Positions 5,481-55,334 of a DNA stretch of 64,000 nt are shown here, one piece after another; position 1 is the first letter of the stretch, and each line of letters begins with the position of its first letter. Below the pieces are notes generated by a model. That model did not search any database. It was not told where the DNA came from and was given only the letters and a program-made list of their open reading frames with translations. The DNA is from a bacterium (lineage in GTDB: Bacteria; Margulisbacteria; Marinamargulisbacteria; JAHFDA01): the NCBI GenBank assembly GCA_023249225.1, contig JAHFDA010000008.1, positions 4,331 through 68,330 of the forward strand, written 5' to 3'. A program made the position numbers and the translations under genes.

Positions 5481-7259
5481 ATGATTTCCACCATGCGACA
5501 AGATAACAACGCCGTGAAAATTGCCCTTAAAGACCACCCTATTTTCCGCAAGCCCAAGGGGCCTGTGGTGCAAATTATTCTGGACGGCTTTGGCTATGGC
5601 GACCTTGGCTTTGAATATAACGTCGTGACGCCGACCTATGTTCCGGCCTTCTTTAATTTGTTCCATCCGGACAGGCCGCATTGCGCCGTGATTGGCGCAA
5701 GTGCGCGTTACGTGGGGCTCGACAACGACGTGGTGGGCAATTCCGAAGTCGGTCACAACAGCGTTGGCGCGGGTCAGTACAAGGATCAGGGTGGGCGTCT
5801 GGTCAATCAGGGTGTGCAGTCGGGCAGTCTTATGAAAAGCCCGGTGTGGAATGACCACGTGATCGGGCCGATCTTGCAAAGTCAAAGCACTTCCAGCCAG
5901 CGCACGCTGCATCTGCTGGGTCTAATCCAAGATACCACCATCATCCACTCGGACGTACGCCACATGCTGGCGCTCATCGATGATGCGGCCGCCAAAGGCG
6001 TGCGCTCGCTCGCCATCCACGGTCTCACCGACGGGCGTGATGATCCCGATCGGCATGCGGTCGATCTCTTTCGTCAGCTCGAAGAAAAATGCGCGGCCAT
6101 CAACAAGAAACATTCCGGCTATCACTACCGCGTTGCCAGTGGCGGTGGGCGCATGCGTATGACCATGGACCGCTACGAAGATAACTGGAACATGGTCAAG
6201 CTGGGCTGGGATGCCCACGTACTCGGGCGCGTGAATACTTCCACCGGCGGCGTGTATACGCGCAAGGCTTCTGACGCCATCGCGGCCTACTATGTCAACC
6301 CCGACCCCAAGTTTGGCGAAATTGACCAGTACGTTTATCCCTTTGTGGTGGTTGACGAACATGGCCAACCCATTGGAACCATCCAAGATGGCGACTCGGT
6401 GGTGTTCACCAACTTTCGTGGCGACCGGGCGATTGAGATCAGCAAGGCTTTTGAAGATCCCAGCTTTAATGTTTTCGATCGCGAACGCATGCCCAAGGTG
6501 CAATATGCCGGCATGATGCTCTACGACGGCGACAACAATATCCCCCAACAATTTCTGGTTACCGCGCCGGGTTATACCAACACGATGGCCGAAATACTTA
6601 CATCCAACGGCGTGGCTATGTTCGCCATTTCCGAAACCGCCAAGTTTGGCCACGTCACCTACTTTGCCGACGGCAACCGCAGCAACGTCAAGGAGCGTTA
6701 CACCTACAAGCAAATCAAGGGCGACCCGGTAGAAATGTACGTGTCGCATCCGCAAATGAAGGTGGCCGAAATCACCCACCAGGCCATCGATTACATCCGC
6801 TCGGGCCGTTTTCGTTTTGGACGCATCAACCTGGCCAACCCCGACATGATTGGCCACACCGGCAACTGGGAAGCCGTCAAACACGCCATGGCTTCTGTTA
6901 ACCTGCAAATCGAAATGCTGCTCAAGGCTATTCAGGAAGCCGAAGGCATTGCGCTGGTTTTTGCCGATCACGGCAACGCCGACGAAATGGTGCGTCGTAA
7001 AAAAGATGGCTCTATCGAGATGCGTGAAGGCAAACCCGTGCCTAACATGAGCCACACCATGGCACCGGTTCCGCTGCTCGTGGTTGACGCCAGCGGCCAG
7101 CAAATTCCGTTTCGCCTCGACACCACAGACGCCGTGCCCGAAAAATTGCGCGGCGATGTCCCCGGCGCGGGGCTTTTAAATGTTGCGGCCACGACGCTGA
7201 ATCTAATGGGGTATGAGGCGCCGGAGTTTTATTGGCCGTCGTTGTTGCGTTCCCGTTAA
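5481..7259 (+). CDS. gpmI: 2,3-bisphosphoglycerate-independent phosphoglycerate mutase (long form)
   Basis: 592-aa ORF. ILDGFGYG, GNSEVGHNSVGAGQ, HGLTDGRDD, NPDMIGHTG and ADHGNADEM motifs of iPGM. Confidence 0.9.
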   Translation: MISTMRQDNNAVKIALKDHPIFRKPKGPVVQIILDGFGYGDLGFEYNVVTPTYVPAFFNLFHPDRPHCAVIGASARYVGLDNDVVGNSEVGHNSVGAGQYKDQGGRLVNQGVQSGSLMKSPVWNDHVIGPILQSQSTSSQRTLHLLGLIQDTTIIHSDVRHMLALIDDAAAKGVRSLAIHGLTDGRDDPDRHAVDLFRQLEEKCAAINKKHSGYHYRVASGGGRMRMTMDRYEDNWNMVKLGWDAHVLGRVNTSTGGVYTRKASDAIAAYYVNPDPKFGEIDQYVYPFVVVDEHGQPIGTIQDGDSVVFTNFRGDRAIEISKAFEDPSFNVFDRERMPKVQYAGMMLYDGDNNIPQQFLVTAPGYTNTMAEILTSNGVAMFAISETAKFGHVTYFADGNRSNVKERYTYKQIKGDPVEMYVSHPQMKVAEITHQAIDYIRSGRFRFGRINLANPDMIGHTGNWEAVKHAMASVNLQIEMLLKAIQEAEGIALVFADHGNADEMVRRKKDGSIEMREGKPVPNMSHTMAPVPLLVVDASGQQIPFRLDTTDAVPEKLRGDVPGAGLLNVAATTLNLMGYEAPEFYWPSLLRSR

Positions 7260-7360
7260 TACCAATCCTTAGACCAGCAAGAGTATTTATACTGATTTAA
7301 TAATTTATATAAATTTATACTTTACAGTAAATTTATATAAGCATATAATTTAATGGAAAT

Positions 7361-8569
7361 ATGCTTAGCCCCCAGAACCCATTCAGGCCAGGCGCGGGAC
7401 ACCCCCCGCCTTATCTTGCCGGACGAGACACGGAACAAAAAGACTTTGCCACCCTGCTTGAGCAGAAACCCATTCTGCAAAATCTTGTAATTACCGGATT
7501 GCGCGGAATTGGAAAAACCGTCCTGATGGAAAGTCTCAAGCCGCTTGCCGCTCAAAAGCAGTGGGCCTGGGTTGGAACCGATTTGTCCGAGAGCGCGGCG
7601 GTTTCTGAAGAGGCTTTTGCAGAAAGGCTGCTTACAGATCTTTCCGTCTTCAGTGCGTCAATCCGCATTCCCTCCAAAAAGGTTCAGTCTATTGGATTTA
7701 CGGGATCAACATCATCGGGGGAGATCCACCTCAACTACCTAACTTTGCGTGCCATCTTTGACCATACGCCAGGGCTGATATCTGACAAGCTGCGCAGTGT
7801 GTTGGAATTGGTTGGGACACGCGCTCATGCTGCCGGGGCGGCTGGAATAATATTTGCGTATGACGAAGCCCAGACGATGTTCGACAGTCCGGATGAGAAA
7901 CAATATCCCTTGGCCTTATTGCTGGATGTTTTCCAATCGATCCAGCGAAAGGGCATACCGGTCATGCTTTTGCTGACTGGGTTGCCGGCGCTCTTTCCAA
8001 AGCTCGTTCAGGCCCGTACTTTTGCAGAAAGGATGTTTGGTGTCATTGAGCTGCGTCCTTTATCGCTGGAGGAGTCACGTATGGCGATTCGGGAACCATT
8101 CAAGCTGAAAGCTGTACCCAAAGAGTTTTGCTTCAGCAAGGACATTGTCGAACTTATCGCCAAAACATCAGCAGGGTACCCCTACTTCATCCAATTTATA
8201 AGCAAGGCAGTTTTTGATGTTTGCGGAACCCGCCCTGCCCGAGTGAAATGGGTCGTTCCAATCAACGAAATTGTTAAAAAGCTGGATCAGGAATTTTTTG
8301 CCGGACGATGGGCAAGAGTCACTGATCGACAACGCGATTTAATTAAAATTATTGCCCGACTACCGACTGCTAATGATGAATTTACAGTCCAGGAAATTTC
8401 GGAAAAGTCGCTCGCATTAAAAACGGGGGTCCAATTCTTTAAGCCCAGCCAGATTGTGCAAATGCTGGCGGTACTTACAGAAAGGGGCCTGATATACAAG
8501 GATCGTCATGGAAAATACGTCTTTGCAGTCCCTTTGTTTGCCGATTTTGTCAGGCGTTTGCGTGAATGA
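7361..8569 (+). CDS. AAA/STAND-type ATP-binding protein (Arch_ATPase-like) with C-terminal winged-helix-like region
   Basis: 402-aa ORF. FAGRDTE-type N-terminus, Walker A GLRGIGKTVL, Walker B IIFAYDEAQ. The C-terminus (FTVQEISEKS...LTERGLIYKDRHGKYVF) looks wHTH-like. The 100-nt upstream region is very AT-rich. Confidence 0.75.
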   Translation: MLSPQNPFRPGAGHPPPYLAGRDTEQKDFATLLEQKPILQNLVITGLRGIGKTVLMESLKPLAAQKQWAWVGTDLSESAAVSEEAFAERLLTDLSVFSASIRIPSKKVQSIGFTGSTSSGEIHLNYLTLRAIFDHTPGLISDKLRSVLELVGTRAHAAGAAGIIFAYDEAQTMFDSPDEKQYPLALLLDVFQSIQRKGIPVMLLLTGLPALFPKLVQARTFAERMFGVIELRPLSLEESRMAIREPFKLKAVPKEFCFSKDIVELIAKTSAGYPYFIQFISKAVFDVCGTRPARVKWVVPINEIVKKLDQEFFAGRWARVTDRQRDLIKIIARLPTANDEFTVQEISEKSLALKTGVQFFKPSQIVQMLAVLTERGLIYKDRHGKYVFAVPLFADFVRRLRE

Positions 8570-11809: not shown

Positions 11810-12964
11810 ATGTTTCTTAAGATAGTAGCCCTTACCCCCGCCGCCATTGGTGAAATATCCAAAATATCCAGCGGTGCGGAGGCATTACAATGTTGGCTTG
11901 GTGCCCGGAAACCGCAAGTCGTCATCGCCTTGGGTTCCGGACTGGGGGGTTTGGCGGACAGCCTTATTGATCCCATTGAATTACCATTCAACGAAGTTTC
12001 GGATTTTCCGCATAAAGAACTTACCATCGCTGGCCAAGACGGTATGTTTCGCTGCGGCCGTCTCAAGCACGAATCCGGCGTCGAGATCGAAGTGCTGGCC
12101 GTCTGCGGGCGCTGGCATATGTACGAGGGTTTTTCGGCCGTGGAAGTAGCCCGGCCCTGGCGCGCCATGCGGCTTTTAGGATTGCAAAACTTTTTGCTGA
12201 CCAATGCCACCGGTTCCATTTGGGGTTTTATAAAACCCGGTGACCTGGTACTTCAAGAAGATTTTTACGCTTGTTTCGAGCAAGCCTCACCGTTCTTTGA
12301 CGGTCCGCACCTGCCGCAGTTTGGCGAACTTTTTCCGGCCATGCAACCGCTTGCTGATGCTGAATTAAAAGAAGTTTTGCTCAAAGCTGCAAAAATTAAA
12401 AAGTTTTATTGTGGCGATGAACTTGCCAATGCCGGGCGCGCGGTAGCGGGCAGTTCCGTTAGCCATATTCACATCAAGGGGGGCGATACGTTTAACGTCT
12501 ATGTGCCCCCGCATTACAGCAGTGAAGCCGTTAACCCGCTATTTACTCTGCATAACACCACTTTGCAGCAGATTGAACGAGATGGATCTCGCCGCTATGA
12601 CGGACTTCTATGGACGGGCGGCGTCTATGCCATGCGTGCAGGCCGCAAGTACGAAACTCCCGCCGATGTGCATTTTCACCGTGTGATGGGTCACACCAAT
12701 GTGGCCATGTCCCTTGTGCCAGAGTGGCAGGCGTTAATCCACCGCTACCACGACGTAAGTGAAAAACCGGTTGATGCCCTGCCACCTGCGCGTGTGCTGG
12801 CGTTAAGCATTGTCGCTAACCCGGCTGCCAGCACGACCCATACCCCTACGCATGCCGAAGTTACCCGCGCCGTTGCCACCGCCACCCCGCGCTTTAACGC
12901 GCTGGTGCTGGAGTGGTTGTTTCAGCTGGCGGAACGCAGGTTGGTGGAATTTACAGTGGAATAG
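11810..12964 (+). CDS. Purine nucleoside phosphorylase family protein (trimeric PunA/PNP type) with large insertions
   Basis: 384-aa ORF. ALGSGLGGLAD, CGRWHMYEG, LLTNATGSI, RKYETPAD, VAMSLVPE and LSIVANPA align with the GSGLGG / GRFHxYEG / TNAAGG / SFETxAE / MSTVPE / ITN blocks of PNP. About 100 extra residues lie between the blocks and at the C-terminus. Confidence 0.8.
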   Translation: MFLKIVALTPAAIGEISKISSGAEALQCWLGARKPQVVIALGSGLGGLADSLIDPIELPFNEVSDFPHKELTIAGQDGMFRCGRLKHESGVEIEVLAVCGRWHMYEGFSAVEVARPWRAMRLLGLQNFLLTNATGSIWGFIKPGDLVLQEDFYACFEQASPFFDGPHLPQFGELFPAMQPLADAELKEVLLKAAKIKKFYCGDELANAGRAVAGSSVSHIHIKGGDTFNVYVPPHYSSEAVNPLFTLHNTTLQQIERDGSRRYDGLLWTGGVYAMRAGRKYETPADVHFHRVMGHTNVAMSLVPEWQALIHRYHDVSEKPVDALPPARVLALSIVANPAASTTHTPTHAEVTRAVATATPRFNALVLEWLFQLAERRLVEFTVE

Positions 12965-13012: not shown

Positions 13013-13078
13013 ATATCAAATCCATATTTTTAAAACTTTGCCGATAAATCTTCACAGTCCACCAGGAGGTTACGCGTT

Positions 13079-14485
13079 ATGTTTTACAAAGTCATTCCAT
13101 TTAACATGATCATCGAAGGCACGGGCCGCATTGGTTTGCAGACCATTTGGCGTCTCGCGGAGCTCGAAAAGGCGCGTCTTGCCGAGGGTCGTGGTGGACA
13201 GAAGCCAGAGACGATTCTGGCGATCGACGTGATTTCCTTCGAAGATTTTGTGGCCGGCCTGACCGGGCGGCTCAAGGTCGAAAACGTTATTAAGGACGGC
13301 AAAGTGGCGCGTCATTCCGAAATTACCACCGAACCCTGCGAGTTTCAGCCGCATTTTTTTGATCCAGAGCGCCTGGGTATTGCGCCGCAGCACAATAACA
13401 CCATTAAAGTTTACGAAAGACCTTTTGTGGAACACGAGGATGACGGCGGCAGAGTCTTATTCACCATCAAGTACATCCAGGCCAAACGCCCCGATGGCAG
13501 CTTTATGAACGACGACGAAAAAATGGCCCTCGCCAAAGAGTACGACGCCAAAGTATGGGCCTCGTGTACGGGCATGAAGCCGCGCGTGGAAAAAGACGGT
13601 ATTTTGGCCTTTGCCGAAAGACTCAAGCAGCAGTCGCCCGGCACGGTGGTGCTGGTATCGGCGCCCACCAAGGGCAAGGACGTCAGTGAAGCAGCCAAGG
13701 CGCTTAAAAAAAAGATGGACATCACCGTCACACGCAACTTTTCGCGCACGGGAACTTTGTTTCGTTATGTGATTGACCTCAACTTTCCTGCCCCTGATGG
13801 GACTACAGATTACCAAGCGGCTTTTATTGCGAACTTGCGGAGACTGGCCGCGCATCCGCACTTTAAAAATTTTATCGGCCTTGATGAGGGTATCGAGCGC
13901 GCCGACCAGGTGGAAGGCAAGGAAACGCTCATCCACATTGACACGTCCAAAATTAAATTGATTCGTGTAGACAAGGATCATTACAAGCTCAAGCTGAACT
14001 TTTGGGAGGATAATGAGTACGGTTATTCCTGTGTGTACGCACGCAACGTTTTGGCGCTGGCGGCGGCCCTGCAGGATCGCACCCTCAACGCGTCCATACC
14101 AGCCACCACGCTGCTCACCGTCATTAACAGCTTGCACGGCGACGAATGGTTCGAGCAAAACATTGACGCCATTCTGGCCAACGGAAATGTGTCGGCCAGT
14201 TCCTGCACGACCAATGGCAATATTACGGGTCTCATCGCCAGTCTGATGCCGTTCAACATGTTGTTATTGCCTGAAAGCATCCAGAAGTTCAGTGATTTCA
14301 GCGTGGACGATATTCAGGCGATGTTCGCAAATGTGCTTGCCCGTATGGTGCGTTATGTCGACATTCACATGGAACATGGTCTGACGCTGACCGAAGATCC
14401 GAGAGTGGTACCTTTTGTGCGCGAAGTATCTTCTGGTTCGCAGACAGAAGTGCCGCTGGTGCTGGCGGATTTGCCGCGCGAGTAA
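13079..14485 (+). CDS. Divergent glyceraldehyde-3-phosphate dehydrogenase-like protein with non-canonical block order
   Basis: 468-aa ORF. GTGRIG (residues 14-19), VWASCTG (compare VVESTG), VVLVSAPTKG (compare VIISAPSKD), TGTLFRYVIDL...LKLNFWEDNEYGYS (residues 224-317; compare TGMAFRVP...VSWYDNEWGYS), then NVSASSCTTNGNITGL (residues 370-385; compare IVSNASCTTNCLAP). Confidence 0.7.
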   Translation: MFYKVIPFNMIIEGTGRIGLQTIWRLAELEKARLAEGRGGQKPETILAIDVISFEDFVAGLTGRLKVENVIKDGKVARHSEITTEPCEFQPHFFDPERLGIAPQHNNTIKVYERPFVEHEDDGGRVLFTIKYIQAKRPDGSFMNDDEKMALAKEYDAKVWASCTGMKPRVEKDGILAFAERLKQQSPGTVVLVSAPTKGKDVSEAAKALKKKMDITVTRNFSRTGTLFRYVIDLNFPAPDGTTDYQAAFIANLRRLAAHPHFKNFIGLDEGIERADQVEGKETLIHIDTSKIKLIRVDKDHYKLKLNFWEDNEYGYSCVYARNVLALAAALQDRTLNASIPATTLLTVINSLHGDEWFEQNIDAILANGNVSASSCTTNGNITGLIASLMPFNMLLLPESIQKFSDFSVDDIQAMFANVLARMVRYVDIHMEHGLTLTEDPRVVPFVREVSSGSQTEVPLVLADLPRE

Positions 14486-14530: not shown

Positions 14531-15673
14531 CTAAGATAAGAACCTCCCCTGCTCCAAAAACTTGCAGCAACGGGTGTAGTCCCAAAGTTGGCAGCGTGCC
14601 TTGGGATATTGTTTTTGAAACGCCGCCAGGCCGCTGTGTTTATCCTTAAATCCGGATTTAATTTCGATGGCGAATAAATCATTGGGCGTGCGCAGCACAA
14701 AATCAACTTCGGCGTTATTGTCACGCCAATAGAACAACTCCGTATCGGGCAACATGGCCAGGTGGGCGCCCATGATCGATTCGAACACAAAACCATACCA
14801 GCCGGGCTCCTTGATCAGGCGGGTTTGGGGTACGTAAGCATGAATCAGGGCCGGATTCAGCACTATAATCTTGGGGCTGGAATCCTTTATCCGTATTTCG
14901 GAGCCTGAATATTTTTGCAGGGCCCGTATCAGGTAACTTTTTTGCAACAAATCAAGATAGCCCTTGATGGTGGTGGCGTTGCCTCGATCCTGTAGCTGTC
15001 CCAACATTTTTTGCAAACTGATGATATGCGCCGGGTGCCGCACTGCCAGTTCAAACGTTTGCCGAAAAAGCGCCGGCTTATGCACCGGGTTCAGCTGATA
15101 AATATCCTTGCTGATCACCGTCTCCACAATGCTGTTTAAAATATAGTGTTTCCACCGGACAGCATCGCCCTTAAAAGGAATCGCGCCCGGATAAGCTCCC
15201 CACTTCATATAGGTATTTAGATCCCATCCAAAGGCCTGATGGCATTCCAGAAAAGACCAGTGCGGCACTTCGGTCAGCTCAAAACGTCCGGTTAAACTCT
15301 CGCTTAATCCCTTTTGTAAAAACAAGCTGGATGAACCCATCAGTGCCACCTTGATCCGGCCCCGGCCACGTTCCTGGTCAAACAACTGCTTGATGACTTC
15401 GCTCCAGCCGGTCACCTTTTGAATTTCATCAAAAATCAGCAGTGTGTTGGGACCTTGGGCCAGGGCTTCCTGCCAATGCACCCTGATCCAATCTGCTCCC
15501 GGCGGACTGGGATCGTCGGCGCTGACCATGAATTTGGGCCCCTTCCAGCGGTTAAAAATCCATTGGGCGCCCGTGGTTTTACCCACCTGGCGCGGGCCCA
15601 GAATCATTTGCAACAACGGGGCTTTTTCCTGTAAGCGTTTAAGCAGCGTTTTTTGAAATTCCCGTTCAATCAT
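14531..15673 (-). CDS. ATP-binding protein, AAA_14 + DUF4143 architecture
   Basis: 380-aa ORF. Walker A GPRQVGKTT, Walker B LLIFDEIQK. C-terminal restriction-endonuclease-like EVDFVL...AIEIKSG motif typical of DUF4143 ATPases. Paralog of 57213-58355. Confidence 0.85.
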   Translation of the reverse strand: MIEREFQKTLLKRLQEKAPLLQMILGPRQVGKTTGAQWIFNRWKGPKFMVSADDPSPPGADWIRVHWQEALAQGPNTLLIFDEIQKVTGWSEVIKQLFDQERGRGRIKVALMGSSSLFLQKGLSESLTGRFELTEVPHWSFLECHQAFGWDLNTYMKWGAYPGAIPFKGDAVRWKHYILNSIVETVISKDIYQLNPVHKPALFRQTFELAVRHPAHIISLQKMLGQLQDRGNATTIKGYLDLLQKSYLIRALQKYSGSEIRIKDSSPKIIVLNPALIHAYVPQTRLIKEPGWYGFVFESIMGAHLAMLPDTELFYWRDNNAEVDFVLRTPNDLFAIEIKSGFKDKHSGLAAFQKQYPKARCQLWDYTRCCKFLEQGRFLS

Positions 15674-15759: not shown

Positions 15760-17805
15760 CTAAGGCAAGCGCACTCCCCGCCGTTTCAAAAACGGACGCA
15801 ATAAGTTTTTGGCGTCTATTAGCTTTTGACAGATACGTTGACGCGTCACGTTTTTCTCGCTGACGCCCAGTTCCGCCGCGTGGTCGCCGATTTCCTGCAG
15901 GGACATTTTTTCGCAACCGTACCCGTGGGACAGGGCAATCAGGCGCGCCTCTACGGGATACTTTTGGCGGAACTGATCGAGCGCGTCCGCCACGGAGTGA
16001 TCCCATGAGCGTTTGGCCAGGATTTCGTCGTGCAGCTCGGCTTCGTCGGCCACATAATCGCCAAGGTCCGTATCGCCGTCTTCGGAAACGGGCTGGTCGA
16101 GCGAGGTCTTGTTGTCAAAATACAAGAACTCAATCACTCCGGGTTTAAGCACCTCGTGCAGCAGGCCCGGGGTTTCATCCAGTTCGGTGGCCAGGGCCTG
16201 CATTTGATCGTTGGAGTAATTCCGCAATTCTTCGAGCGTTAATGCGTTTACAAAACAGAAACGGTTAATCTTGCTGATGGCGACCGCAACATATCTGGGC
16301 ATGCTGCTAAGGTTGTCCCAGTAAAGTGACATGCGCTGAAAGGCCCAGTGGGAGGCATAGGTTGTAAATTTGTTTCCCGATTCCACGTCATAGGTTTTTG
16401 CGCCCCGCGTAAAGCCCTCGATGCATAAATCGACCAACGTGGTGACCAGCTCGGAGTCCGGCTCGAAGACGCCTTTACTATGGAGAAACGCATAAGTCAT
16501 TTTTTGCGCCAGCCGCAGGTGGCTTAGTACCAGACGGTCGCACAAAACCTTATCCATGCGGTCGTCGGCAATGTACTGCTGCCACAGCGCTTTTTCAGTT
16601 TCCCAGGGCAGGTGCTTGAAATCCTCCGGGGACACGGGCCGCGGCTGGGGTTTGCGTGCAAGCACGGGGTGCGGAGGTGATAGGTACTGCTCGCCTTCTT
16701 TGAGTACAAAGGTCAGCGTTTGGGTCTGGCGCGCAAGTACATTTTCCAAAGCATCCACTTCGATGCGCCACTGTCGGATACCGGCTTCCACGTGGCCATA
16801 ACAGCGCATCCAAAGTTCTTTGCCGCGCCACGAATCGGGCAAACCCGACAGCAGAAAGAAGATTCGCGTCCTGCGACCATTCACAACGGCCTGAATGCGC
16901 GTGACTTCAAACCCTTTTTTAACGATGCCCGACACGGTAGATTCTTCCAATGTTGGCAGGCGTTTGACGGTGACCATGTCAAATTTACCCGGACGAACGC
17001 GTTGCAACCACGCGCTCAACTGCATGCCAAACATATGCGGTTCGGCCTCGACCAGCCGTTGGAGTGGTTCAATGTAGGGATTCCATCGCAGGGCGTAGGG
17101 TAAAAAAACGCTGTCCTGGGTGATGAGGCGTTGGTCGTAAATTGCGGGCGCAATCCCGTCTTGCGGTTGAAGCTCCTCTAGTCGCACCGCATCGTAAACG
17201 TGAGCGCCAACTTTAATTTTAAAAGTTTGCGCCCGCACTTGAGTCACTTCCGGCGGCATGGGGCCCATGTCGACACATTGGCCGGCCTTTACGGCGGTGT
17301 ACAAGGACACCAGGTGGTTACTTGGATACACATCGAGCACATGCGCGGGTGGTGGCGCCAGTCGTGTGCCAGAAAAATATTCCAAAAGCCATTGCTTCCA
17401 AGACGCGGTCAGCGAGGGGCCGGCCAGCTGCTCGGCGCGTTCGAACAGTTTATTCCCCAGACGCAGCACAAAAATCATTTCGGGAGACTGGGGCCGCTTT
17501 AAGGGACGCACACATATTTGCCAGGCAGTTTGGTTCTCAAGTTTCGCGTTGAAGAAGCGTGCCTCCAAAGGCCTGTTTAGCCATTCCGGCGGAAATCCGC
17601 GCAGTTCCAAACCGATGCTTTTTCCGCGCCATTCTAGCAAGAGCACACGAACGTCATTGCGGATGCTAATGTCAAAACGGCGTGTCGGTGGCGGGGTGGT
17701 CGGAGCGTCGGCGAGCAGCCAGGCCCGCGCCTTTTTACCCCATAGGATATTCCACGACCGTCCGCCGTACTCGGGGGAGGTTGCAATTTGTTTTAGGCGG
17801 AACAC
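15760..17805 (-). CDS. Sigma-70 family protein with approximately 400-aa uncharacterised N-terminal extension
   Basis: 681-aa ORF (GTG start). The C-terminal 280 aa aligns by eye to sigma regions 2-4: NKFTTYASHWAFQRM (2.3/2.4), MPRYVAVAISKINR (3.0), SLDQPVSEDGDTDLGDYVADE (3.2), EARLIALSHGYG...MSLQEIG...VSEKNVTRQRICQKLIDAKNLLR (4). The N-terminus contains two copies of a G-x-P-x-x-W ... W-x-I-x-V ... FVL module. Confidence 0.8.
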   Translation of the reverse strand: MFRLKQIATSPEYGGRSWNILWGKKARAWLLADAPTTPPPTRRFDISIRNDVRVLLLEWRGKSIGLELRGFPPEWLNRPLEARFFNAKLENQTAWQICVRPLKRPQSPEMIFVLRLGNKLFERAEQLAGPSLTASWKQWLLEYFSGTRLAPPPAHVLDVYPSNHLVSLYTAVKAGQCVDMGPMPPEVTQVRAQTFKIKVGAHVYDAVRLEELQPQDGIAPAIYDQRLITQDSVFLPYALRWNPYIEPLQRLVEAEPHMFGMQLSAWLQRVRPGKFDMVTVKRLPTLEESTVSGIVKKGFEVTRIQAVVNGRRTRIFFLLSGLPDSWRGKELWMRCYGHVEAGIRQWRIEVDALENVLARQTQTLTFVLKEGEQYLSPPHPVLARKPQPRPVSPEDFKHLPWETEKALWQQYIADDRMDKVLCDRLVLSHLRLAQKMTYAFLHSKGVFEPDSELVTTLVDLCIEGFTRGAKTYDVESGNKFTTYASHWAFQRMSLYWDNLSSMPRYVAVAISKINRFCFVNALTLEELRNYSNDQMQALATELDETPGLLHEVLKPGVIEFLYFDNKTSLDQPVSEDGDTDLGDYVADEAELHDEILAKRSWDHSVADALDQFRQKYPVEARLIALSHGYGCEKMSLQEIGDHAAELGVSEKNVTRQRICQKLIDAKNLLRPFLKRRGVRLP

Positions 17806-28917: not shown

Positions 28918-30792
28918 ATGCCCTCTGCCCAAACCTACCAAGTTATCGTCATCGGTGCCGGACATGCCGGTATCGAGGCGTCTCTGGCGTCGGCGCGGAT
29001 GGGCTGCCCTACCCTGTTGCTGACAGCCAGTATCAATACCATCGGAAAAATGTCCTGTAACCCGGCTATCGGCGGACCCGCCAAGTCACATCTTGTTTTT
29101 GAGATGGATGCTCTGGGGGGTTACATGGGCTGGGCAGCAGACCAGACCGCCTTGCAACTTAAAATGCTGAACACCTCAAAGGGCCCGGCCGTTTGGTCGC
29201 TGCGGGCCCAAAGCGACATGTACGCCTACCAGCGTTTGGCACAACAGACCGTATGTGGGCAGGCCAATCTGGATGTGCGGGAAAGCATGGTGCTTCGTTT
29301 CCTATATGAAAACGAAGCAGGCAGCTCCAAACGGGTCTATGGTGTTTGCACCCAGGACGGAACCGAATACCGGGCACAGGCCGTGGTTCTGACGACCGGA
29401 ACCTTTATGCGTGGCTTGCTGCATACCGGACTGGTGCATACGCCCGGCGGCCGGGTAGGCGAACAAGCGTCGAATGATATTTCAAGCGCGCTACGCGATC
29501 TGGGAGTCGAACTTGGGCGCCTAAAAACCGGCACGCCTCCGCGCTTGCATCGCGATTCGATCAATTTCTCTGCCATGAAACTTGAGCCCGGAGACGTGCA
29601 GCCTTATCAGTTCAGCACACGTACCGAAAAATTAGACTGTCCTAACATACCGTGCCACCTGACCTACACCAGCGATAAAACGCATCAGATCATTCGTGAT
29701 CACCTGCACGAAAGCCCAATGTACACTGGCAAGATCGAAGGCACGGGGCCGCGTTACTGCCCTTCCATCGAAGATAAAGTGGTCAAATTTGCCGATAAAG
29801 ACCGCCACCAGATTTTTATCGAACCCACTGGGAGGGATCACGTCGAGATGTACCCTTCTGGTTTTTCGACCAGCCTGCCGGCTGAAGCGCAACTTAAAGC
29901 CATGCGCACGTTGCCAGGGCTTGAACAGGTAGAATTTGTGCGCCCGGGTTACGCCGTGGAATATGATTTTGTGTTTCCGCATCAACTTAAGAACACCTTT
30001 GAACTGCAGCGCGTTGAGGGTTTGTATTGCGCCGGCCAAATTTGCGGTACGTCCGGCTACGAAGAAGCTGCCGCCCAAGGCCTGTATGCAGGCATCAACG
30101 CCGCGCTTAAAGTTCAAAGTAAACCAGCCATGGTGCTGACGCGCGACAGTGCATACATCGGCTGTATGATCGACGACCTGATCACCAAAGAGATTACCGA
30201 ACCTTACCGTATGTTTACGGGACGTTCTGAATTTCGTTTGTTGCTTAGACAAGACAATGCCGACATACGTCTGACTTCTTATGGCAGGCGTGTGGGGCTG
30301 GTGGCAGACAGCCAGTGGAATAAATTTGAGCAAAAAAAGATGCACATGCAAGCGTATGTGCAAAAATTAAAAGCGTTGCGCCTCAATCCAGACTCCCCTA
30401 CCCTAGAACGTCTGCATGTTTTGGGTATCTCGATCAAAAAAACACATGCGCTTGATGAAATTCTGAAACGGCCTGAAATCACGCTGGATCGTCTGATTGC
30501 ACTAGGGTTTATTGACGATGGCCTTGACCGGCTTACCCGTCTTAATGTGGAAACAGACATCAAGTACGCAGGCTTTGTTGCGCGGCAACAAGAGCAAGTC
30601 CGTGATTTTCAACAGCTCGAGCGCATACCGCTTCCGGCAAATTTTTCCTATCTGAACTTGACTGGGCTGCGTAAGGAAGCCATGCAAAAACTAGAAAAAT
30701 TACGGCCTGCCAATTTAGGACAGGCTTCGCGGATTGCAGGCGTCAACCCAGCCGATCTTACTGTGCTGATGGTTCAGTTAAAACGCCGGTAA
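28918..30792 (+). CDS. mnmG: tRNA uridine-5-carboxymethylaminomethyl modification enzyme MnmG (GidA)
   Basis: 624-aa ORF. YQVIVIGAGHAGIEA FAD motif, GGPAKSHLV, GPRYCPSIEDK, and a conserved C-terminal QASRIAGVNPAD. Confidence 0.95.
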   Translation: MPSAQTYQVIVIGAGHAGIEASLASARMGCPTLLLTASINTIGKMSCNPAIGGPAKSHLVFEMDALGGYMGWAADQTALQLKMLNTSKGPAVWSLRAQSDMYAYQRLAQQTVCGQANLDVRESMVLRFLYENEAGSSKRVYGVCTQDGTEYRAQAVVLTTGTFMRGLLHTGLVHTPGGRVGEQASNDISSALRDLGVELGRLKTGTPPRLHRDSINFSAMKLEPGDVQPYQFSTRTEKLDCPNIPCHLTYTSDKTHQIIRDHLHESPMYTGKIEGTGPRYCPSIEDKVVKFADKDRHQIFIEPTGRDHVEMYPSGFSTSLPAEAQLKAMRTLPGLEQVEFVRPGYAVEYDFVFPHQLKNTFELQRVEGLYCAGQICGTSGYEEAAAQGLYAGINAALKVQSKPAMVLTRDSAYIGCMIDDLITKEITEPYRMFTGRSEFRLLLRQDNADIRLTSYGRRVGLVADSQWNKFEQKKMHMQAYVQKLKALRLNPDSPTLERLHVLGISIKKTHALDEILKRPEITLDRLIALGFIDDGLDRLTRLNVETDIKYAGFVARQQEQVRDFQQLERIPLPANFSYLNLTGLRKEAMQKLEKLRPANLGQASRIAGVNPADLTVLMVQLKRR

Positions 30793-42599: not shown

Positions 42600-44024
42600 A
42601 TGTTGAACCAGCTTGAACCGATTTTTTTTGGAACCGACGGTTGGCGGGCACGCATGGACGGTGCCTTTCATACATCCAATGTCCGGCGTGTGAGTCAGGC
42701 CTATGCCGCCTATGTGCTTTCACAAAATGGAGCCCAGCAGGGGGTGGTAGTAGGTTACGATTTCCGGCAACATTCCGAGAACTTTGCGGTACTTACAGCG
42801 GAGTGCCTTGCGGCGTGTGGTATCCGTGTATGGTTGTCACCGGAAGCCTGTCCCACGCCGGCGGTGTCGGTGGCAGTACTCGAAAAAAAAGCGTTTGGTG
42901 GTGTGATGATCACCGCCAGCCACAACCCGGCCCAATATAACGGTTTTAAAATCAAGGATCGCTACGGAAAATCGGCTGGTTCCGAGGTTACTGGTTTTGT
43001 AGAAACCCATCTGGATCGGCCTTTGAGCGGGTTATCAGATGCTCCGTCCACGATTGCCAGCCTGGATCTTAAAACCTTGTATTTAACGAGATTACAAGGG
43101 GCGGTAGACATGGCCCGCATTGCGGAACAACCCCAAAAGGTGCTCGTCAACTGTTTGTATGGCAGCGGTGCGGGTGTGATGGCCAAAGCCTTTGCAGATT
43201 CAAAGTTGCAGGTGGTGGAGATGAACGCCACGCGCGATATGCACTTTGGCGGTATCAACCCCGAGCCACTCGAAGTCAATGTCAAGGATATGCAAGCACG
43301 CATGCGTCAGGAAAAGTTTGATCTGGGCTTGATCTACGATGGTGATGCCGACCGTATTGGCGCCATGACCCCGGACGGCATCTTTTTAAACTCGCAGGAT
43401 ATATATGTTCTTTTGCTCTGGCACCTGTTGCAGCATCGTCACATGCAGGGCAGGGTAGTCAAATCCTTTAACATCACCGACCGCGTGGATCGTCTGGCCC
43501 GCCAGCACGGATGTCCTTTGCAGGTTACGCCCATTGGCTTTAAGCAGATTGCCCCCTTTTTACTCCAGCCCGATTGTTTGATAGGAGGGGAGGAATCGGG
43601 TGGTTATGGCGTGCGTTTTTATCTGCCAGAGCGCGATGGCATATTCTGCGGACTGCTCCTGCTTGAATCTATGGCCATGGGTGGCAAAGGGATCAAGGCG
43701 CTTTTAGACCAGGCAGCGTCCGAAATTGGAGCTACTTTTTATCACCGCCTGGATGTTCAACTCAATGCGGGTACAGACCCACAGGCCCTTATGGCACAAT
43801 TCAAAAATCCCTCTGGAATGCGGTTTGCCAACCTAAAAATCCAGTCGGTCGAAACCTTGGACGGCATCAAGTACCGTTTTGGTGACGGGCACTGGATACT
43901 TTTCCGTTTTTCGGGGACAGAACCGCTACTGCGGATTTATGCCGAAGGACCGCAACAGGAAGCCGTGACGTTGTTGTTGGATGAGGCGCAGAAGCTATTC
44001 CCAGATGTGAATAGTGCAAGCTAA
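42600..44024 (+). CDS. Phosphoglucomutase/phosphomannomutase family protein (alpha-D-phosphohexomutase)
   Basis: 474-aa ORF. FGTDGWR, active-site ITASHNPAQYNGFK, metal loop YDGDADR, sugar loop GGEESGG, phosphate loop RFSGTEPLLRIY. Confidence 0.9.
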   Translation: MLNQLEPIFFGTDGWRARMDGAFHTSNVRRVSQAYAAYVLSQNGAQQGVVVGYDFRQHSENFAVLTAECLAACGIRVWLSPEACPTPAVSVAVLEKKAFGGVMITASHNPAQYNGFKIKDRYGKSAGSEVTGFVETHLDRPLSGLSDAPSTIASLDLKTLYLTRLQGAVDMARIAEQPQKVLVNCLYGSGAGVMAKAFADSKLQVVEMNATRDMHFGGINPEPLEVNVKDMQARMRQEKFDLGLIYDGDADRIGAMTPDGIFLNSQDIYVLLLWHLLQHRHMQGRVVKSFNITDRVDRLARQHGCPLQVTPIGFKQIAPFLLQPDCLIGGEESGGYGVRFYLPERDGIFCGLLLLESMAMGGKGIKALLDQAASEIGATFYHRLDVQLNAGTDPQALMAQFKNPSGMRFANLKIQSVETLDGIKYRFGDGHWILFRFSGTEPLLRIYAEGPQQEAVTLLLDEAQKLFPDVNSAS

Positions 44025-51187: not shown

Positions 51188-53656
51188 ATGGCTGAACCCG
51201 CAGGCTTGCCCGGGGGGGCACAGAACAGTTGTCGTTTAGAAGCTGCGTCTGCGACAAATATTTCTGCTGCTACTTCAAAAAACGCTCACCTGCTAAAAAA
51301 AATATTCCGGCATGGTTGGCCTGGTATTTCAGATCTTCAAACGGCCTTACAAAAAATCGACTTGATTTCAGACACATTCATGGCGCTAAAAAACCGCATG
51401 ATGGTCTTTAAAATCATTGACCAGGCACTCAAAGCCGAGCAACAAACACCCCTGCAAACGCAACAACGCGGTTCGGTTTACAAATTTCTGATGGCTTACC
51501 AACAAACCCTTTGGGCCGATCAACAGGGTTTAAGCGAAACAGCCCCTCCCCCAGAAGAAGCGCGCTATGCGCTTGCCAGAGCCCTGCAGCTTGTACAAAC
51601 GCTGGATGCGCCTGCCCAGGACTTGGTGAGTACGCTGCTGTTTTCGGTCATCAACCGGCACCAGACTTTTTTTGATCTGCGTCAAAATGTCCGCCACATT
51701 GTGTGTAGCCCATCCTGGCAAGAGCCGAAAGACGCCGATCAAAACGCGTTTAACCCGCACCAGGGAAATTTTGATTTTGAAAAATACCTGCTTAGTCAAA
51801 GGCGCTTGTATCCACTGCCCGAGCCAGATTACCAGGCAATCTTACAGGCTGATCAATGGCAGCGTTTGGATCCATTGCTTTCTGACCCAGCCCCTTTTAA
51901 GCCGATCAATCAATTTGATTGGGAGCTCCCTCGCATCCGCTGGTCGCTCGACAACCCTTCTTTAAGACCCAAAGCACTGCAGATCCCCAGTCCTTTGGTG
52001 GTCTTTCAGCAGTATTATCAGCTTAGTGCTAAGGCCAATGCCCCTGGCCAGTTTAATTTGACGGATGATTATCCAGACCCTTTTATGCTGGATGCCTTTA
52101 TCGGTGACCTGGAAGATTTTGCCAACGCGGTTTCGCCCGAATATGAATCCATGCTTGAAAACGCGGAAAGCACGACGCCTACCGAGGACGAAGTTAAAAA
52201 TAATCTATATGACCTTGATCAAGTCGTCGATGATTATTACAACACATTTGATGATCTTGTGACCCAGGCACAAAGTTTTGACGAACAGGCTCACGTGCGG
52301 GGAACCTACGAGCACAGTTGGTTTTTTAATATGGAATTTCCGGGCTGGTTTGCTTACAGCGCCTTTGGCGGGCACCGTGATGTGACGGCTTTAAGCGGAT
52401 CCGTGGGATACGACATCACTGATCTGCCGACTTCGGACTTTGTTGAAAACAATCCTGTCGATTCAGTTTTTTTGGCTCAAGATGTTTCGGCCAGTTTAGA
52501 AGCTGCTTACACAGACTTGTGGGTAGATAATGATTTTGCGAAACCTGTGGGTCTTGAGTTTTTATTTTTTAAAAAACACCCTTTTGGATTTGACCTTTAT
52601 TCTAGTGACGTGGCTGAAAAAAAAGTAACGTATTCTTTTGACTACACCGCGCAGTTACACGACGTCACCGAAACCAGCCTGGATTTTTCCCATCAGTATG
52701 AAATTCGCAAAACAGTCGACTTTTTGCGTTACAAAGATTGGGATGCGCACTTATTTTCTGACCATCACCTTGAACCCTGGCTAGACCTGCGCTTTGACGT
52801 TTTTTTAAACAATAAATATGCCGGATGGGATCTTGACTACACACAGATCGATGGATATTCGTTTCAGACCATACCTTGGGCCGAAGAAATTCCTGAAACC
52901 GCATACGACATTCCCAAGTATGTAAAGTACGACAACGATATGACCCTTTCGCCTTATGCTACCTACCGGTTTTATCCGCAGAACAAAGCCATGCAGTTGC
53001 AGCTGCTTTTAAGCGGACATTACCATATCGGTTATGACGCCATGCAAATTTACGGAGTTTCGGCTTATCAATGGATTGGCATGCCCTTTTCAAACCAATG
53101 GGTTTTGCCTGACCTGAATGTCTATGGCGAACTGATGCATTCCTGGAGCCCCGGTCAACCTTTAGCCAACCAAGCGCTTTATCGCGGTCGGGTGGGAGCC
53201 GTGTTTTCTAAAGATGGCATGCAAACGCGGCTCGATCTCACCCGTCGTTTTTATGAAGAATATCAGGTTGAAAATGAACCCCTTTATAAAGATATAAAGG
53301 TCATGGAACTCACACACCTGCACCAGTTAAACACGGTTGCTGGCGTAGGCGTGGCGTTTTTGCTTCCAGAAGCAACCCTGGCTTTAGAAATAGCTTCGCC
53401 CCATGGCGTTTTAAACTTTTATCACACCGTGGACGGAAACTTTCGCATTAGCGAAATTGATTTTGGCATGCTCGACTTTTTATCCGTCTCGCATGCCAAG
53501 CACCGTCCGTATTTTGATTTGATTGGTTCTTACCAATATCGTTATGACGAAATCACCATCCTGGGTCAAAAAATTCTCGTGCCGCCAGAAAACGCAGTTG
53601 AGCGCATCGAAGAGCAAGGCACGCTCATGTTCGGATTTCGGACGAGTTATCGGTAA
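51188..53656 (+). CDS. Large hypothetical protein, paralog of 49181-51145 with an extra approximately 280-aa N-terminal region
   Basis: 822-aa ORF. VDDYYNTFDDL...FPGWFAYSAFGG matches INDYYANWEDI...FPGLFTYDAWWG in the paralog, with colinear matches through to the C-terminal ...LMFGFRTSYR. Confidence 0.65.
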   Translation: MAEPAGLPGGAQNSCRLEAASATNISAATSKNAHLLKKIFRHGWPGISDLQTALQKIDLISDTFMALKNRMMVFKIIDQALKAEQQTPLQTQQRGSVYKFLMAYQQTLWADQQGLSETAPPPEEARYALARALQLVQTLDAPAQDLVSTLLFSVINRHQTFFDLRQNVRHIVCSPSWQEPKDADQNAFNPHQGNFDFEKYLLSQRRLYPLPEPDYQAILQADQWQRLDPLLSDPAPFKPINQFDWELPRIRWSLDNPSLRPKALQIPSPLVVFQQYYQLSAKANAPGQFNLTDDYPDPFMLDAFIGDLEDFANAVSPEYESMLENAESTTPTEDEVKNNLYDLDQVVDDYYNTFDDLVTQAQSFDEQAHVRGTYEHSWFFNMEFPGWFAYSAFGGHRDVTALSGSVGYDITDLPTSDFVENNPVDSVFLAQDVSASLEAAYTDLWVDNDFAKPVGLEFLFFKKHPFGFDLYSSDVAEKKVTYSFDYTAQLHDVTETSLDFSHQYEIRKTVDFLRYKDWDAHLFSDHHLEPWLDLRFDVFLNNKYAGWDLDYTQIDGYSFQTIPWAEEIPETAYDIPKYVKYDNDMTLSPYATYRFYPQNKAMQLQLLLSGHYHIGYDAMQIYGVSAYQWIGMPFSNQWVLPDLNVYGELMHSWSPGQPLANQALYRGRVGAVFSKDGMQTRLDLTRRFYEEYQVENEPLYKDIKVMELTHLHQLNTVAGVGVAFLLPEATLALEIASPHGVLNFYHTVDGNFRISEIDFGMLDFLSVSHAKHRPYFDLIGSYQYRYDEITILGQKILVPPENAVERIEEQGTLMFGFRTSYR

Positions 53657-55334
53657 ACAGTTCTTTACTGACTTCAGCCATGAGCGGCGCAAGCACACCC
53701 GGTTTAAAGGGGTCTTCCAGACCTACCAAGCCGATCATTGCAAGAAAAGATTGGGTGCCGCCCAATTTGCATAAAGCCGTGTATACATCCATGGCATGTT
53801 TGGGATCCCTCCGACGCAGCAGCCAAAGCTGCAGGGCGCAGGTTTCGGCCAGTGCGTAATCAATGTAATAAAACGGTGAGGCATAAATATGCAGTTGCCG
53901 CTGCCACAGGCGCGCCTTATACGCTTCTAGTCCGCTAAAGTCATCTCCCGGAAGATATTCGTCCCACAAACTGGCCCAGCATTCAGCCCGTTTTTGCGCC
54001 GTCCAAGCGGGGTTGGAATATACGTTGTGCTGAAACTCGTCGACCAGGCAAATGTAAGGAAAATAAGTAACGGTCTGGATCAGGCGCTCTTTTTTAAACT
54101 TGTCCGCATCTTGAGCGTTAAAAAACATTTCCAGGTGATCCAGTGCCAAAAACTCCATGCCCATGGAATGAATTTCACAGGCTTCGTAGGTGGGAGATTG
54201 TAGCTCCACCAGATCAATCCACTGGCTTTCCCAGGCCTGAAAAGCATGGCCGCTTTCGTGCGTCAGAGCAGAAATATCATCGGCATCTCCGGTGCTGTTG
54301 CAAAACAGGCGTACCTTTTGCTCATCAGGCATGGTGATGCAAAACGCGCCGGCCCGCTTGCCTTTGCGGTTTTCTAAATCAATCAGCCCTTCGCGCTGCA
54401 TACGACGAAAGTGCTCGGCCAGTTTTGGGTGCAACGCTTCAAACAAGGCTGCCGCTTTTTCAAGTTGGCTGGCAGCGGGAACAATTTTGGAGGGCAGGGT
54501 TATCCCCGGGTAGTAGTCACGATTCCAGGGTTTCACCGACAAGGCCCCCAGCTGCTTGGCATGCTGGGCGCGCAATTTGGCGTAGACTGGGACACAGTGT
54601 TTTTTAACCTCGTCACGAAAATGTTTAACCTCGCGGGGCGTGTAATCGCTGCGGTTCATGGTGGTATAACCCAGGGGAATAAAATTGGGCAGGCCAATGT
54701 TGTCAGCCATCTGCTGACGTAAGGTCACCATCTCGCTGTATATGGCGTCCATTTTTTGGGCATGTTCAGCCCAAAAGAGCCGCAACTTTTCAAAGGCCGC
54801 CTGACGCGTGTTTTCGTCTTTTTCAATGAGCTTGGCCTGTAGCTGTGTCAGCGTCAGTTTCTCTCCGCCAAACTCAAACTCGGCCTGGGCCTTGATGCGG
54901 CTGTAATCCGAATACAGTTCTCCAATCTTGATCTGCTGCGGAATATTTACCGGATGGGCAGACGTTTCCTGCGCCTGCCAGATGTTAAAAACCTGCTTGC
55001 CCAGCTTGTTTTCGAGCTCCTTGCGGATGGGAGCATTTAAAACGACTTTGCGCGCTTCAGCATCGTACTGCGTGGCCAGCGGAATAATTTTTTCGCGAAA
55101 CCAACGCATGCGTGCCTCAACCTCTGGGTCAAGCGCATTGCTGGCTTCGGCCAGGTTGCGGCGGGCACTTTCGCCTTCGAGATAGGCTTTGATCTCGTTC
55201 CAATGCTGGATAAAGTCGAGCCACTCGGGCAGCGCCATAAACAAGCGTGCGGTACGCATGAGCAAATTCTGATAAAGTTCCTGAACTACGCTTTCCGTCA
55301 AGTTTGGCGGACGGGTGACATGATTGAAATGCAT
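53625..55334 (-). CDS. M3 family oligoendopeptidase (PepF-like)
   Basis: 569-aa ORF. HESGHAFQ zinc motif with a downstream E in YEACEIHSMGMEF. 3' end overlaps the convergent 51188-53656 ORF by 32 nt. Confidence 0.9.
   Translation of the reverse strand: MHFNHVTRPPNLTESVVQELYQNLLMRTARLFMALPEWLDFIQHWNEIKAYLEGESARRNLAEASNALDPEVEARMRWFREKIIPLATQYDAEARKVVLNAPIRKELENKLGKQVFNIWQAQETSAHPVNIPQQIKIGELYSDYSRIKAQAEFEFGGEKLTLTQLQAKLIEKDENTRQAAFEKLRLFWAEHAQKMDAIYSEMVTLRQQMADNIGLPNFIPLGYTTMNRSDYTPREVKHFRDEVKKHCVPVYAKLRAQHAKQLGALSVKPWNRDYYPGITLPSKIVPAASQLEKAAALFEALHPKLAEHFRRMQREGLIDLENRKGKRAGAFCITMPDEQKVRLFCNSTGDADDISALTHESGHAFQAWESQWIDLVELQSPTYEACEIHSMGMEFLALDHLEMFFNAQDADKFKKERLIQTVTYFPYICLVDEFQHNVYSNPAWTAQKRAECWASLWDEYLPGDDFSGLEAYKARLWQRQLHIYASPFYYIDYALAETCALQLWLLRRRDPKHAMDVYTALCKLGGTQSFLAMIGLVGLEDPFKPGVLAPLMAEVSKELFTDNSSEIRT

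Follow-up and report, generated by a model that had tools for sequence, protein, structure and literature searches.

Glyceraldehyde-3-phosphate dehydrogenase (GAPDH) is among the best-studied and most conserved enzymes, and the order of its motifs, which underlies the Pfam and TIGRFAM models, is treated as fixed. A gene in a 64,000-nucleotide (nt) stretch of DNA from a bacterium of the Marinamargulisbacteria (GenBank assembly GCA_023249225.1, contig JAHFDA010000008.1, positions 4,331 to 68,330; the entire stretch is termed the window here) raises the question of whether a GAPDH-like protein can exist in which this order is broken. The gene (window positions 13079 to 14485, + strand, as are all of its features given below) is an uninterrupted open reading frame (ORF) of 468 amino acids (aa) plus a stop codon. 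A Shine-Dalgarno-like AGGAGG read from the sequence at 13065 to 13070 (+), 8 nt ahead of the ATG at 13079, favors this start over that of the public gene call, which begins at Met10 and yields 459 aa. In canonical GAPDH, SCTTN precedes WYDNEWGYS, the full order being the Rossmann part, SAP, S-C-T-T-N, the His176 strand, the S-loop, strands beta3 to beta8, WYDNEWGYS, and the C-terminal helix. The window protein instead shows the dinucleotide-binding motif GTGRIG (residues 14 to 19; nt 13118 to 13135), ASCTG in place of the canonical ESTG (residues 161 to 165; nt 13559 to 13573), VSAP (residues 193 to 196; nt 13655 to 13666), beta3 to beta8, FWEDNEYGYS (residues 308 to 317; nt 14000 to 14029), a helix, SSCTTN with the catalytic-type Cys376 (residues 374 to 379; nt 14198 to 14215), and only then a putative His strand with HGLT (His433 to Thr436; nt 14375 to 14386). 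The motifs listed in the initial annotation of this locus, which was made from the sequence alone, were all found in place. As the best overall explanation, we consider it highly likely that the window protein, a rare short form in a family of uncharacterized bacterial proteins, is a divergent member of the GAPDH superfamily in which a block corresponding to about residues 123 to 221 of GapA has moved to the C-terminus.

The homology and the order of the blocks were established by profile methods. Since a lone GapA sequence yielded no more than the SCTTN decapeptide with hhalign, we built a canonical GAPDH profile from 15 sequences (Escherichia coli gapA, one gap gene from a metagenome-assembled genome [MAG], and 13 plasmid-borne gap, epd, or ArsJ-type genes of bacteria and haloarchaea). 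A hidden Markov model (HMM) of canonical GAPDH produced four matches to the window protein, with profile positions 6 to 23, 88 to 129, 217 to 331 (15.1 bits), and 147 to 156 falling on residues 11 to 28, 154 to 202, 203 to 328, and 371 to 380, respectively; these matches, and likewise those of hhalign, are not colinear, in agreement with the initial proposal that the catalytic-Cys block lies after the WYDNE-type block. Three blocks can thus be delineated: block A (13079 to 13675; residues 1 to 199), the Rossmann NAD-binding part equivalent to about GapA 1 to 122; block B (13676 to 14086; residues 200 to 336), equivalent to about GapA 222 to 331 and comprising catalytic-domain strands beta3 to beta8 and the "C-terminal" helix (residues 314 to 331); and the transposed block C (14087 to 14482; residues 337 to 468), equivalent to about GapA 123 to 221 and comprising the last two NAD-domain strands, SSCTTN, a helix (residues 376 to 396), and a strand (residues 424 to 433). 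Block-wise hhalign searches placed residues 8 to 30, which carry the GxGRIGR-type motif, on GapA 3 to 25 (E = 2.8e-4) and residues 142 to 199 on GapA 76 to 125 (E = 4.9e-4) for block A, residues 209 to 327 on GapA 222 to 329 (E = 2.2e-5) for block B, and residues 352 to 380 on GapA 131 to 154 (E = 1.5e-4) for block C, which matched solely GapA segments containing SCTTN. The moved block had initially been estimated as residues about 128 to 205 of GAPDH, a range that these alignments widen slightly.

The main comparison came from cutting an alignment of 87 family members into blocks A (1 to 199), B (200 to 336), and C (337 to 468) and realigning each reordered version with the GAPDH profile by hhalign (the values for A-C-B are ranges over four choices of cut points; those for the control orders refer to the cuts at 199 and 336). 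In the native order A-B-C, block B alone was aligned (score 43.1, probability 63.8%, E = 6.6e-5). The order A-C-B, which reverses the proposed move, gave a single colinear alignment (score 86.8 to 89.5, probability 97.2 to 97.3%, E = 1.6e-11 to 3.9e-11) spanning 238 columns to GapA 86 to 329, or 324 columns to GapA 2 to 331 when the hhalign mact setting was low. Neither C-A-B (score 43.1, probability 63.8%, E = 6.6e-5) nor B-C-A (score 43.0, probability 63.6%, E = 6.7e-5) brought any gain, and orders that restore one junction alone fell in between: B-A-C, with only the A-to-C junction (GapA 86 to 154), scored 60.7 (probability 93.6%, E = 2e-7), and C-B-A, with only the C-to-B junction (GapA 132 to 329, 192 columns), scored 62.2 (probability 94.1%, E = 1.3e-7). 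Each correct junction thus adds about 18 to 19 score units and both together about 44, a gain that was stable across the four cut-point choices; this is the pattern expected if GapA 123 to 221 had moved behind GapA 222 to 331. Single sequences gave a fainter version of the same signal. On de-permutation, the TIGR01534 score of the window protein went up from 19.2 bits (E = 5.6e-4) to 27.7 bits (E = 1.4e-6), and the match then covered profile positions 84 to 159 across the restored SAP-to-SCTTN junction. In a cut-point scan, the score of our own GAPDH HMM increased from 18.4 to 34.0 bits, largely because the SCTTN motif was joined on. With HMMs of the individual blocks, single GAPDH sequences scored above the mean of shuffled decoys but not above their maximum.

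By the standards of the type I GAPDH family (GapA; TIGR01534; Gp_dh_N PF00044 plus Gp_dh_C PF02800), which together with Epd is the closest known one, the protein falls outside in both score and motif order. The sole NCBIfam match was TIGR01534, at 19.2 bits against a cutoff of 367.2, with residues 249 to 318 placed on the last 70 profile positions. Comparison with PDB sequences by phmmer gave weak GAPDH matches at residues 223 to 322 and a separate, nonsignificant pairing of residues 361 to 379 with the "vSagSCTTN" region of GAPDH (residues 140 to 159), and the family profile recovered from the PDB sequences only a nonsignificant Rossmann match to DapB. The family has no model in Pfam, NCBIfam, or PADLOC. 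A part in antiphage defense was considered and rejected, as neither the window protein nor the long-form relative P0009 matched any PADLOC model. Nor is the rearrangement a circular permutation of the whole protein: since the N-terminus with GxGRIG is unchanged and only blocks B and C are swapped, it is an internal segment transposition, equal to a circular permutation of the GapA 123 to 331 region only.

The same order recurs throughout a family of about 100 proteins, nearly all of about 588 aa, annotated as "hypothetical" and without a Pfam domain. A search of 5.8 billion proteins returned 24 relatives and a profile search 97; nearly all come from MAGs of Desulfomonilia, Deltaproteobacteria, or Syntrophaceae, and they are 24 to 30% identical to the window protein. 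An exhaustive HMMER search of 1.84 billion cluster representatives gave 17 matches, in which the family profile recovered no canonical GAPDH at E <= 1e-3 and the only additional short-form relatives were P0101 (454 aa, 32% identical to the window protein) and P0105, a 135-aa fragment 48% identical over the C-terminal part. A metagenome scan with the short-form alignment found nothing and one with the full alignment only long forms. The window protein is hence a rare short form, whose best full-length matches are 25 to 32% identical. The six-motif order GxGRxG, S[AH]P, EDNExG, CT[TS]N, M[QE]H[GA]xT, and SG[SA][QS]xEVP is kept by 84 of 87 full-length members (the remaining three lack only the last pattern), and the GAPDH HMM placed its SCTTN match C-terminal to its WYDNE match in 59 of the 60 members that reported both. 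Two proteins were omitted from the later family alignments (A2, A4, and fam.aln): P0094 (661 aa), in which the first 443 long-form residues are followed by unrelated PF12904 and PF13204 domains, and P0024 (575 aa), which has out-of-frame sequence near the C-terminus; both are probably artifacts of assembly or gene calling.

Across the window protein and 20 long forms, the invariant residues are G14, G16, R17, G19, C163, G165, S194, and P196 in the N-terminal half; R219, N220, S222, T224 to R229, F308, and E310 to G315 in mid-chain; and C376 to N381, M431, H433 to T436, R448, E449, and S452 to Q455 in block C. P0101 retains most of them, as does P0105 within its C-terminal span. Ser375-Cys376-Thr-Thr-Asn is invariant in family alignments of both 15 and 21 sequences, as are the Gly, Arg, and Gly positions of GTGRIG; within the window, SCTTN occurs once in 127,996 six-frame residues, so that the string is not a common one there. 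The same alignments, and P0101 too, hold a second invariant cysteine, Cys163 (nt 13565 to 13567), which replaces the Ser/Thr of E-S-T-G, the family having SC(T/V)G where GAPDH and Epd have ESTG. The H433-G-L-T436 motif is conserved in all three lineages, with the Gly and Leu varying in P0101 and P0105.

A structure prediction with AlphaFold2 (AF2) from 96 sequences, including P0101, had a mean predicted local distance difference test score (pLDDT) of 66.8 and a predicted template modeling (TM) score of 0.72, with residues 140 to 440 mostly at about 60 to 93 and block B at 79 to 93. The model begins with strand A, a helix, and strand B ending at Asp50 (nt 13226 to 13228), followed by a hairpin and a low-confidence insertion. 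Then come strand 159 to 163 (ASCTG, betaE), helix 172 to 185 (alphaE), strand 190 to 194 (SAP, betaF), helix 204 to 211, strand beta3 at 213 to 219 ending at Arg219 (nt 13733 to 13735), beta4 at 225 to 235, helix alpha3 at 245 to 258, four strands (beta5 to beta8), of which the last is 301 to 311 (FWEDNE), and helix 314 to 331. The chain continues with short strands at 346 to 347 and 370 to 372, helix 376 to 396 starting exactly at Cys376 as is typical of S-C-T-T-N, albeit at a noncanonical place in the sequence, two extra helices (residues 398 to 423; nt 14270 to 14347), and strand 424 to 433 ending at His433. We take this to be the canonical list of GAPDH elements with those of GapA 123 to 221 placed last. 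The initial annotation had named a fold unrelated to GAPDH as an outcome that would speak against a permutation; in a Foldseek search of the PDB the model proved closest to GAPDH-fold proteins, the top 50 matches all being GAPDH or erythrose-4-phosphate dehydrogenase (E = 6e-8 to 1e-6, probability 1.0, TM score normalized to the target 0.38 to 0.48). TM values of this size are roughly as expected, since a sequential aligner can place only about two-thirds of the target and not the moved block. The large insertion noted early on in the NAD domain is real (13232 to 13528; about residues 52 to 150), although modeled with low confidence; it is specific to the family and has no canonical GAPDH counterpart of such length, the distance from Asp50 to ASCTG being about 108 residues, whereas canonical GAPDH has about 60 between the strand-B Asp and ESTG.

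We consider it quite likely, taking these lines together, that the window protein truly has a permuted GAPDH fold, and a plausible path of the chain can be traced. The moved block would carry the final pair of NAD-domain strands, the S-C-T-T-N helix, the His strand, and the region aligning with the S-loop and the Ser-Thr-Gly phosphate loop. After running through the NAD domain as far as SAP, the chain would pass directly into beta3 to beta8, EDNEYGYS, and the usual terminal helix, and only after that would it add the missing NAD strands, followed by the helix with the Cys and the strand with the His. Because the C-terminal helix of GAPDH folds back against the NAD domain, a chain continuing beyond it can provide the two missing strands and enter the catalytic domain via the Cys helix, so that the permutation is topologically economical.

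The folded chain would thereby rebuild a GAPDH-type active site. Cys376 would act as the nucleophile, forming a thiohemiacetal and then a thioester; His433, tentatively the canonical His176, may be the general base; Asn312 and Glu313 (canonical Asn313 and Glu314) would hold the nicotinamide; and Ser375, Thr377, Thr436, and Arg219 could form the anion (phosphate) sites. Here, we take Ser375, Cys376, and Thr377 to be the canonical Ser148, Cys149, and Thr150 and, tentatively, Thr436 to be Thr179. The invariant Arg219 is the proposed equivalent of the canonical Arg231 (the Arg of R-V-P in GapA), with which it is aligned by hhalign, whereas phmmer against the PDB aligns Arg223 instead, four residues away. 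The stretch VDIHMEHGLTLTED (residues 427 to 440) includes the His433 region; it had been likened to the GLMTTVHA strand of GAPDH, and of that comparison the predicted strand with a conserved His at its end stands, while no significant alignment to the His176 strand was obtained. The identification of its VDIHMEHGLT strand with the His176 strand is hence tentative and based on predicted secondary structure and conservation. The SSGSQ of the conserved SSGSQTEVP motif (nt 14429 to 14455) aligns, at low confidence, within the SSTGAAK zone of GapA; the phosphate-site residues of canonical GAPDH are Arg231, Thr208-Gly209, and Arg195. Such an enzyme might use NAD(P)+ to oxidize an aldehyde, passing the acyl group on to phosphate, or might work in the opposite direction and reduce acyl phosphates; its substrate would probably be phosphorylated or otherwise anionic, and we place little confidence in any particular one. 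Judging from Asp50, which closes strand B, the window protein and the long forms seem to prefer NAD.

Whether the protein is an active GAPDH-type catalyst is, from its sequence, an evenly balanced matter. The conservation of Cys376, His433, Arg219, and the NAD-site residues leads us to infer an active thioacyl-forming dehydrogenase. A different possibility, which accepts the permuted fold, is that the protein is a pseudoenzyme, a regulator or scaffold, or a catalyst of other chemistry, such as redox or persulfide reactions of Cys163 and Cys376. Such a role could accommodate the features that have no canonical explanation, namely, the invariant Cys163 in place of the Ser/Thr of E-S-T-G and the family motifs without a clear GAPDH counterpart (the RNxSxTGTLFR loop, SSGSQTEVP, and the coiled-coil tail of the long forms), as well as the tentative equivalence of His433 and the divergent pairing of the long forms with a flavoenzyme described below. 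Yet the nucleophile motif, His-x-x-Thr, Arg219, and EDNE are all kept across lineages only 25 to 32% identical, as is typically seen where purifying selection maintains a functional GAPDH-type site, and we regard this alternative as unlikely. A more specific proposal, possible in our view but doubtful, is that the roughly 100 proteins are an unrecognized enzyme family in which a noncircularly permuted chain rebuilds a GAPDH-type site, with Cys163 as a second invariant cysteine, and catalyzes a reaction other than the oxidation of glyceraldehyde 3-phosphate or erythrose 4-phosphate, e.g., the oxidation or reduction of another anionic aldehyde or acyl phosphate, with the Desulfomonilia-type long forms and the divergently transcribed LhgO/GlpO-like flavoenzyme constituting an unknown metabolic step.

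Several observations weigh against a permuted GAPDH. Pfam-A gave zero matches at E <= 10 for the native protein, and Pfam still none for the de-permuted sequence; the de-permutation brought no gain against TIGR01534 for P0101 and left the long form undetected. The HH signal of block C by itself comes mostly from about 25 residues ending in SCTTN, and hhalign, which places the gap differently, does not pair His433 with His177 of GapA. P0101 has a Gly in place of Asp50 and SHP in place of SAP. A first AF2 model built from 21 sequences was poor (pLDDT 50.6), and the second is weak at residues 37 to 127 (pLDDT < 50) and 442 to 468. Finally, genomic context yields no pathway for the window protein.

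Some of these points would also fit a colinear, highly divergent GAPDH-like protein, in which SCTTN occurs late merely by chance and the last 130 residues form an unrelated extension. The lack of a Pfam match and the short HH signal in block C are in keeping with this, and hhalign at low mact can indeed be forced into a colinear alignment of 279 columns, pairing residues 7 to 329 with GapA 2 to 331; however, the score of that alignment does not exceed the 43.1 reached with block B alone. A colinear protein would further have to fit about 100 GAPDH residues into the only about 22 that separate SAP from beta3, where, between SAP196 and Arg219, no cysteine is conserved in the family. The invariance of SCTTN in the 15- and 21-sequence alignments, its single occurrence in about 128,000 six-frame residues, and the gains of 18 to 19 score units from restoring either junction and of 44 from restoring both all argue against it, rendering it very improbable. 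As for a chimeric join or frameshift near 14.05 to 14.15 kb, the absence of a close relative (25 to 32% identity at full length and 48% for the 135-aa fragment) leaves the assembly of the window without a direct cross-check, but with a single uninterrupted ORF, no discontinuity in GC content at 14.0 to 14.2 kb, and the same block order in P0101, the P0105 fragment, and about 100 long forms from independent assemblies (NCBI, JGI, ENA, and Logan), which excludes a chimera, the chance of an artifact is negligible.

The permuted GAPDH-like protein can be set against known enzymes. It resembles GAPDH and Epd in the predicted fold, which pairs a Rossmann NAD domain with an alpha/beta catalytic one, and in the motifs GxGRIG, SAP, S-C-T-T-N, and (W/F)-x-D-N-E-x-G-Y, the last running into a long helix. 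It also has an acidic residue closing strand B and, as tentative counterparts, H-x-x-T and an Arg that terminates beta3. It differs from them in carrying the GapA 123 to 221 block at the C-terminus, in having about 50 extra NAD-domain residues (more in the long forms) and two additional helices separating the Cys helix from the His strand, and in that the region corresponding to the S-loop appears shorter. Aspartate-semialdehyde dehydrogenase (ASADH), ArgC, and DapB have the same two-domain (Rossmann plus alpha/beta) architecture as GAPDH, and ASADH and ArgC form a thioacyl enzyme on a Cys; unlike the window protein, however, all three are colinear and lack the SCTTN and WYDNE motifs, and the likeness of the long form to DapB is limited to weak, nonsignificant N-terminal Rossmann matches over the first approximately 40 residues (E = 0.015 to 2). 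A closer analogy in topology is offered by the cpRAS and YlqF/YawG GTPases, single-domain proteins that are circularly permuted (PMC2430557). As in these GTPases, the catalytic motifs stand in rotated order in a fold thought to be kept; in contrast to them, the protein keeps its N-terminus, and what has moved to the end is an internal block straddling the domain boundary. In the literature library searched, we found no description of a permuted GAPDH; the initial annotation likewise knew of none. If the permutation is correct, this two-domain fold can tolerate a drastic change in connectivity, in which a block of about 100 residues crosses the domain boundary and carries the nucleophile with it. 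It accounts for about 100 proteins that have been annotated as "hypothetical" without a domain match, provides a natural case in which to study folding, assembly, and how segments come to be transposed through partial duplication and deletion, and may indicate that anaerobic deltaproteobacterial lineages, as well as the poorly sampled one to which the window belongs, have a dehydrogenase activity that is so far unassigned.

The gene neighborhoods offer a lead for the long forms. In 32 of 46 metagenomic loci (L108 to L153), an LhgO/GlpO-like FAD oxidoreductase is encoded directly upstream of the long-form gene on the opposite strand; in two further loci, L002 and L005, the divergent gene lies at 6651 to 7913 (-) and 6531 to 7667 (-), respectively. 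The oxidoreductase is most similar to L-2-hydroxyglutarate oxidase (269 bits, with a cutoff of 299) and type 2 glycerol-3-phosphate oxidase. The pairing persists where the downstream genes differ, and we treat it as a functional lead for the long forms, not as proof. Downstream of the long-form gene are a NIF3 gene (35 of 46 loci) and a zinc-ribbon gene (31 of 46), separated from it by gaps of > 200 bp, and pyrR-pyrB-pyrC lies further upstream in many loci. In L008, a canonical Gp_dh_N/Gp_dh_C gene is found two genes upstream of the long-form member, so that in at least this genome the latter is an additional paralog and not the housekeeping GAPDH. The loci of P0101, with housekeeping genes (rsmH/trmB, a prepilin peptidase, and hem genes), have no neighbors in common with the window, where neither a canonical GAPDH nor a DAO or NIF3 homolog was found.

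Within the window, the gene is flanked upstream by one for a purine-nucleoside-phosphorylase-like protein (11810 to 12964, +) and downstream, on the opposite strand, by one for an AAA_14/DUF4143 ATPase (14531 to 15673, -). The former, of 384 aa, exceeds the models of about 250 to 275 positions by about 110 aa and matches them in two separate stretches, below the cutoff (151 bits against 218). The ATPase matches the PADLOC candidate defense model PDC-S01 (E = 1e-130), and a second AAA_14/DUF4143 ATPase is encoded at 57213 to 58355 (+). Beyond the first of these lies a gene for a 681-aa sigma-70-like protein (15760 to 17805, -), whose C-terminal approximately 280 residues weakly match RpoD/RpoS and whose N-terminal approximately 380 are unmatched; it also weakly matches MzaA, the sigma factor of the MZA antiphage system (E = 1.7e-7). 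The window further encodes two cofactor-independent phosphoglycerate mutases within 7 kb (28 to 1221, +, and 5481 to 7259, +; PhosphMutase [PF10143] and iPGM_N), an AAA_16/nSTAND6-type STAND NTPase (7361 to 8569, +), a protein of the phosphoglucomutase/phosphomannomutase family (42600 to 44024), and tandem M3-family oligopeptidases (53625 to 55334, -, and 55369 to 57108, -). Its MnmG (28918 to 30792, +) is 50 to 52% identical to the best matches among 185,579 species-representative genomes, which are MAGs of Poribacteria, Nitrospira, Verrucomicrobia, Planctomycetes, and Chlamydiota; the lineage of the window seems to be one that has been poorly sampled.

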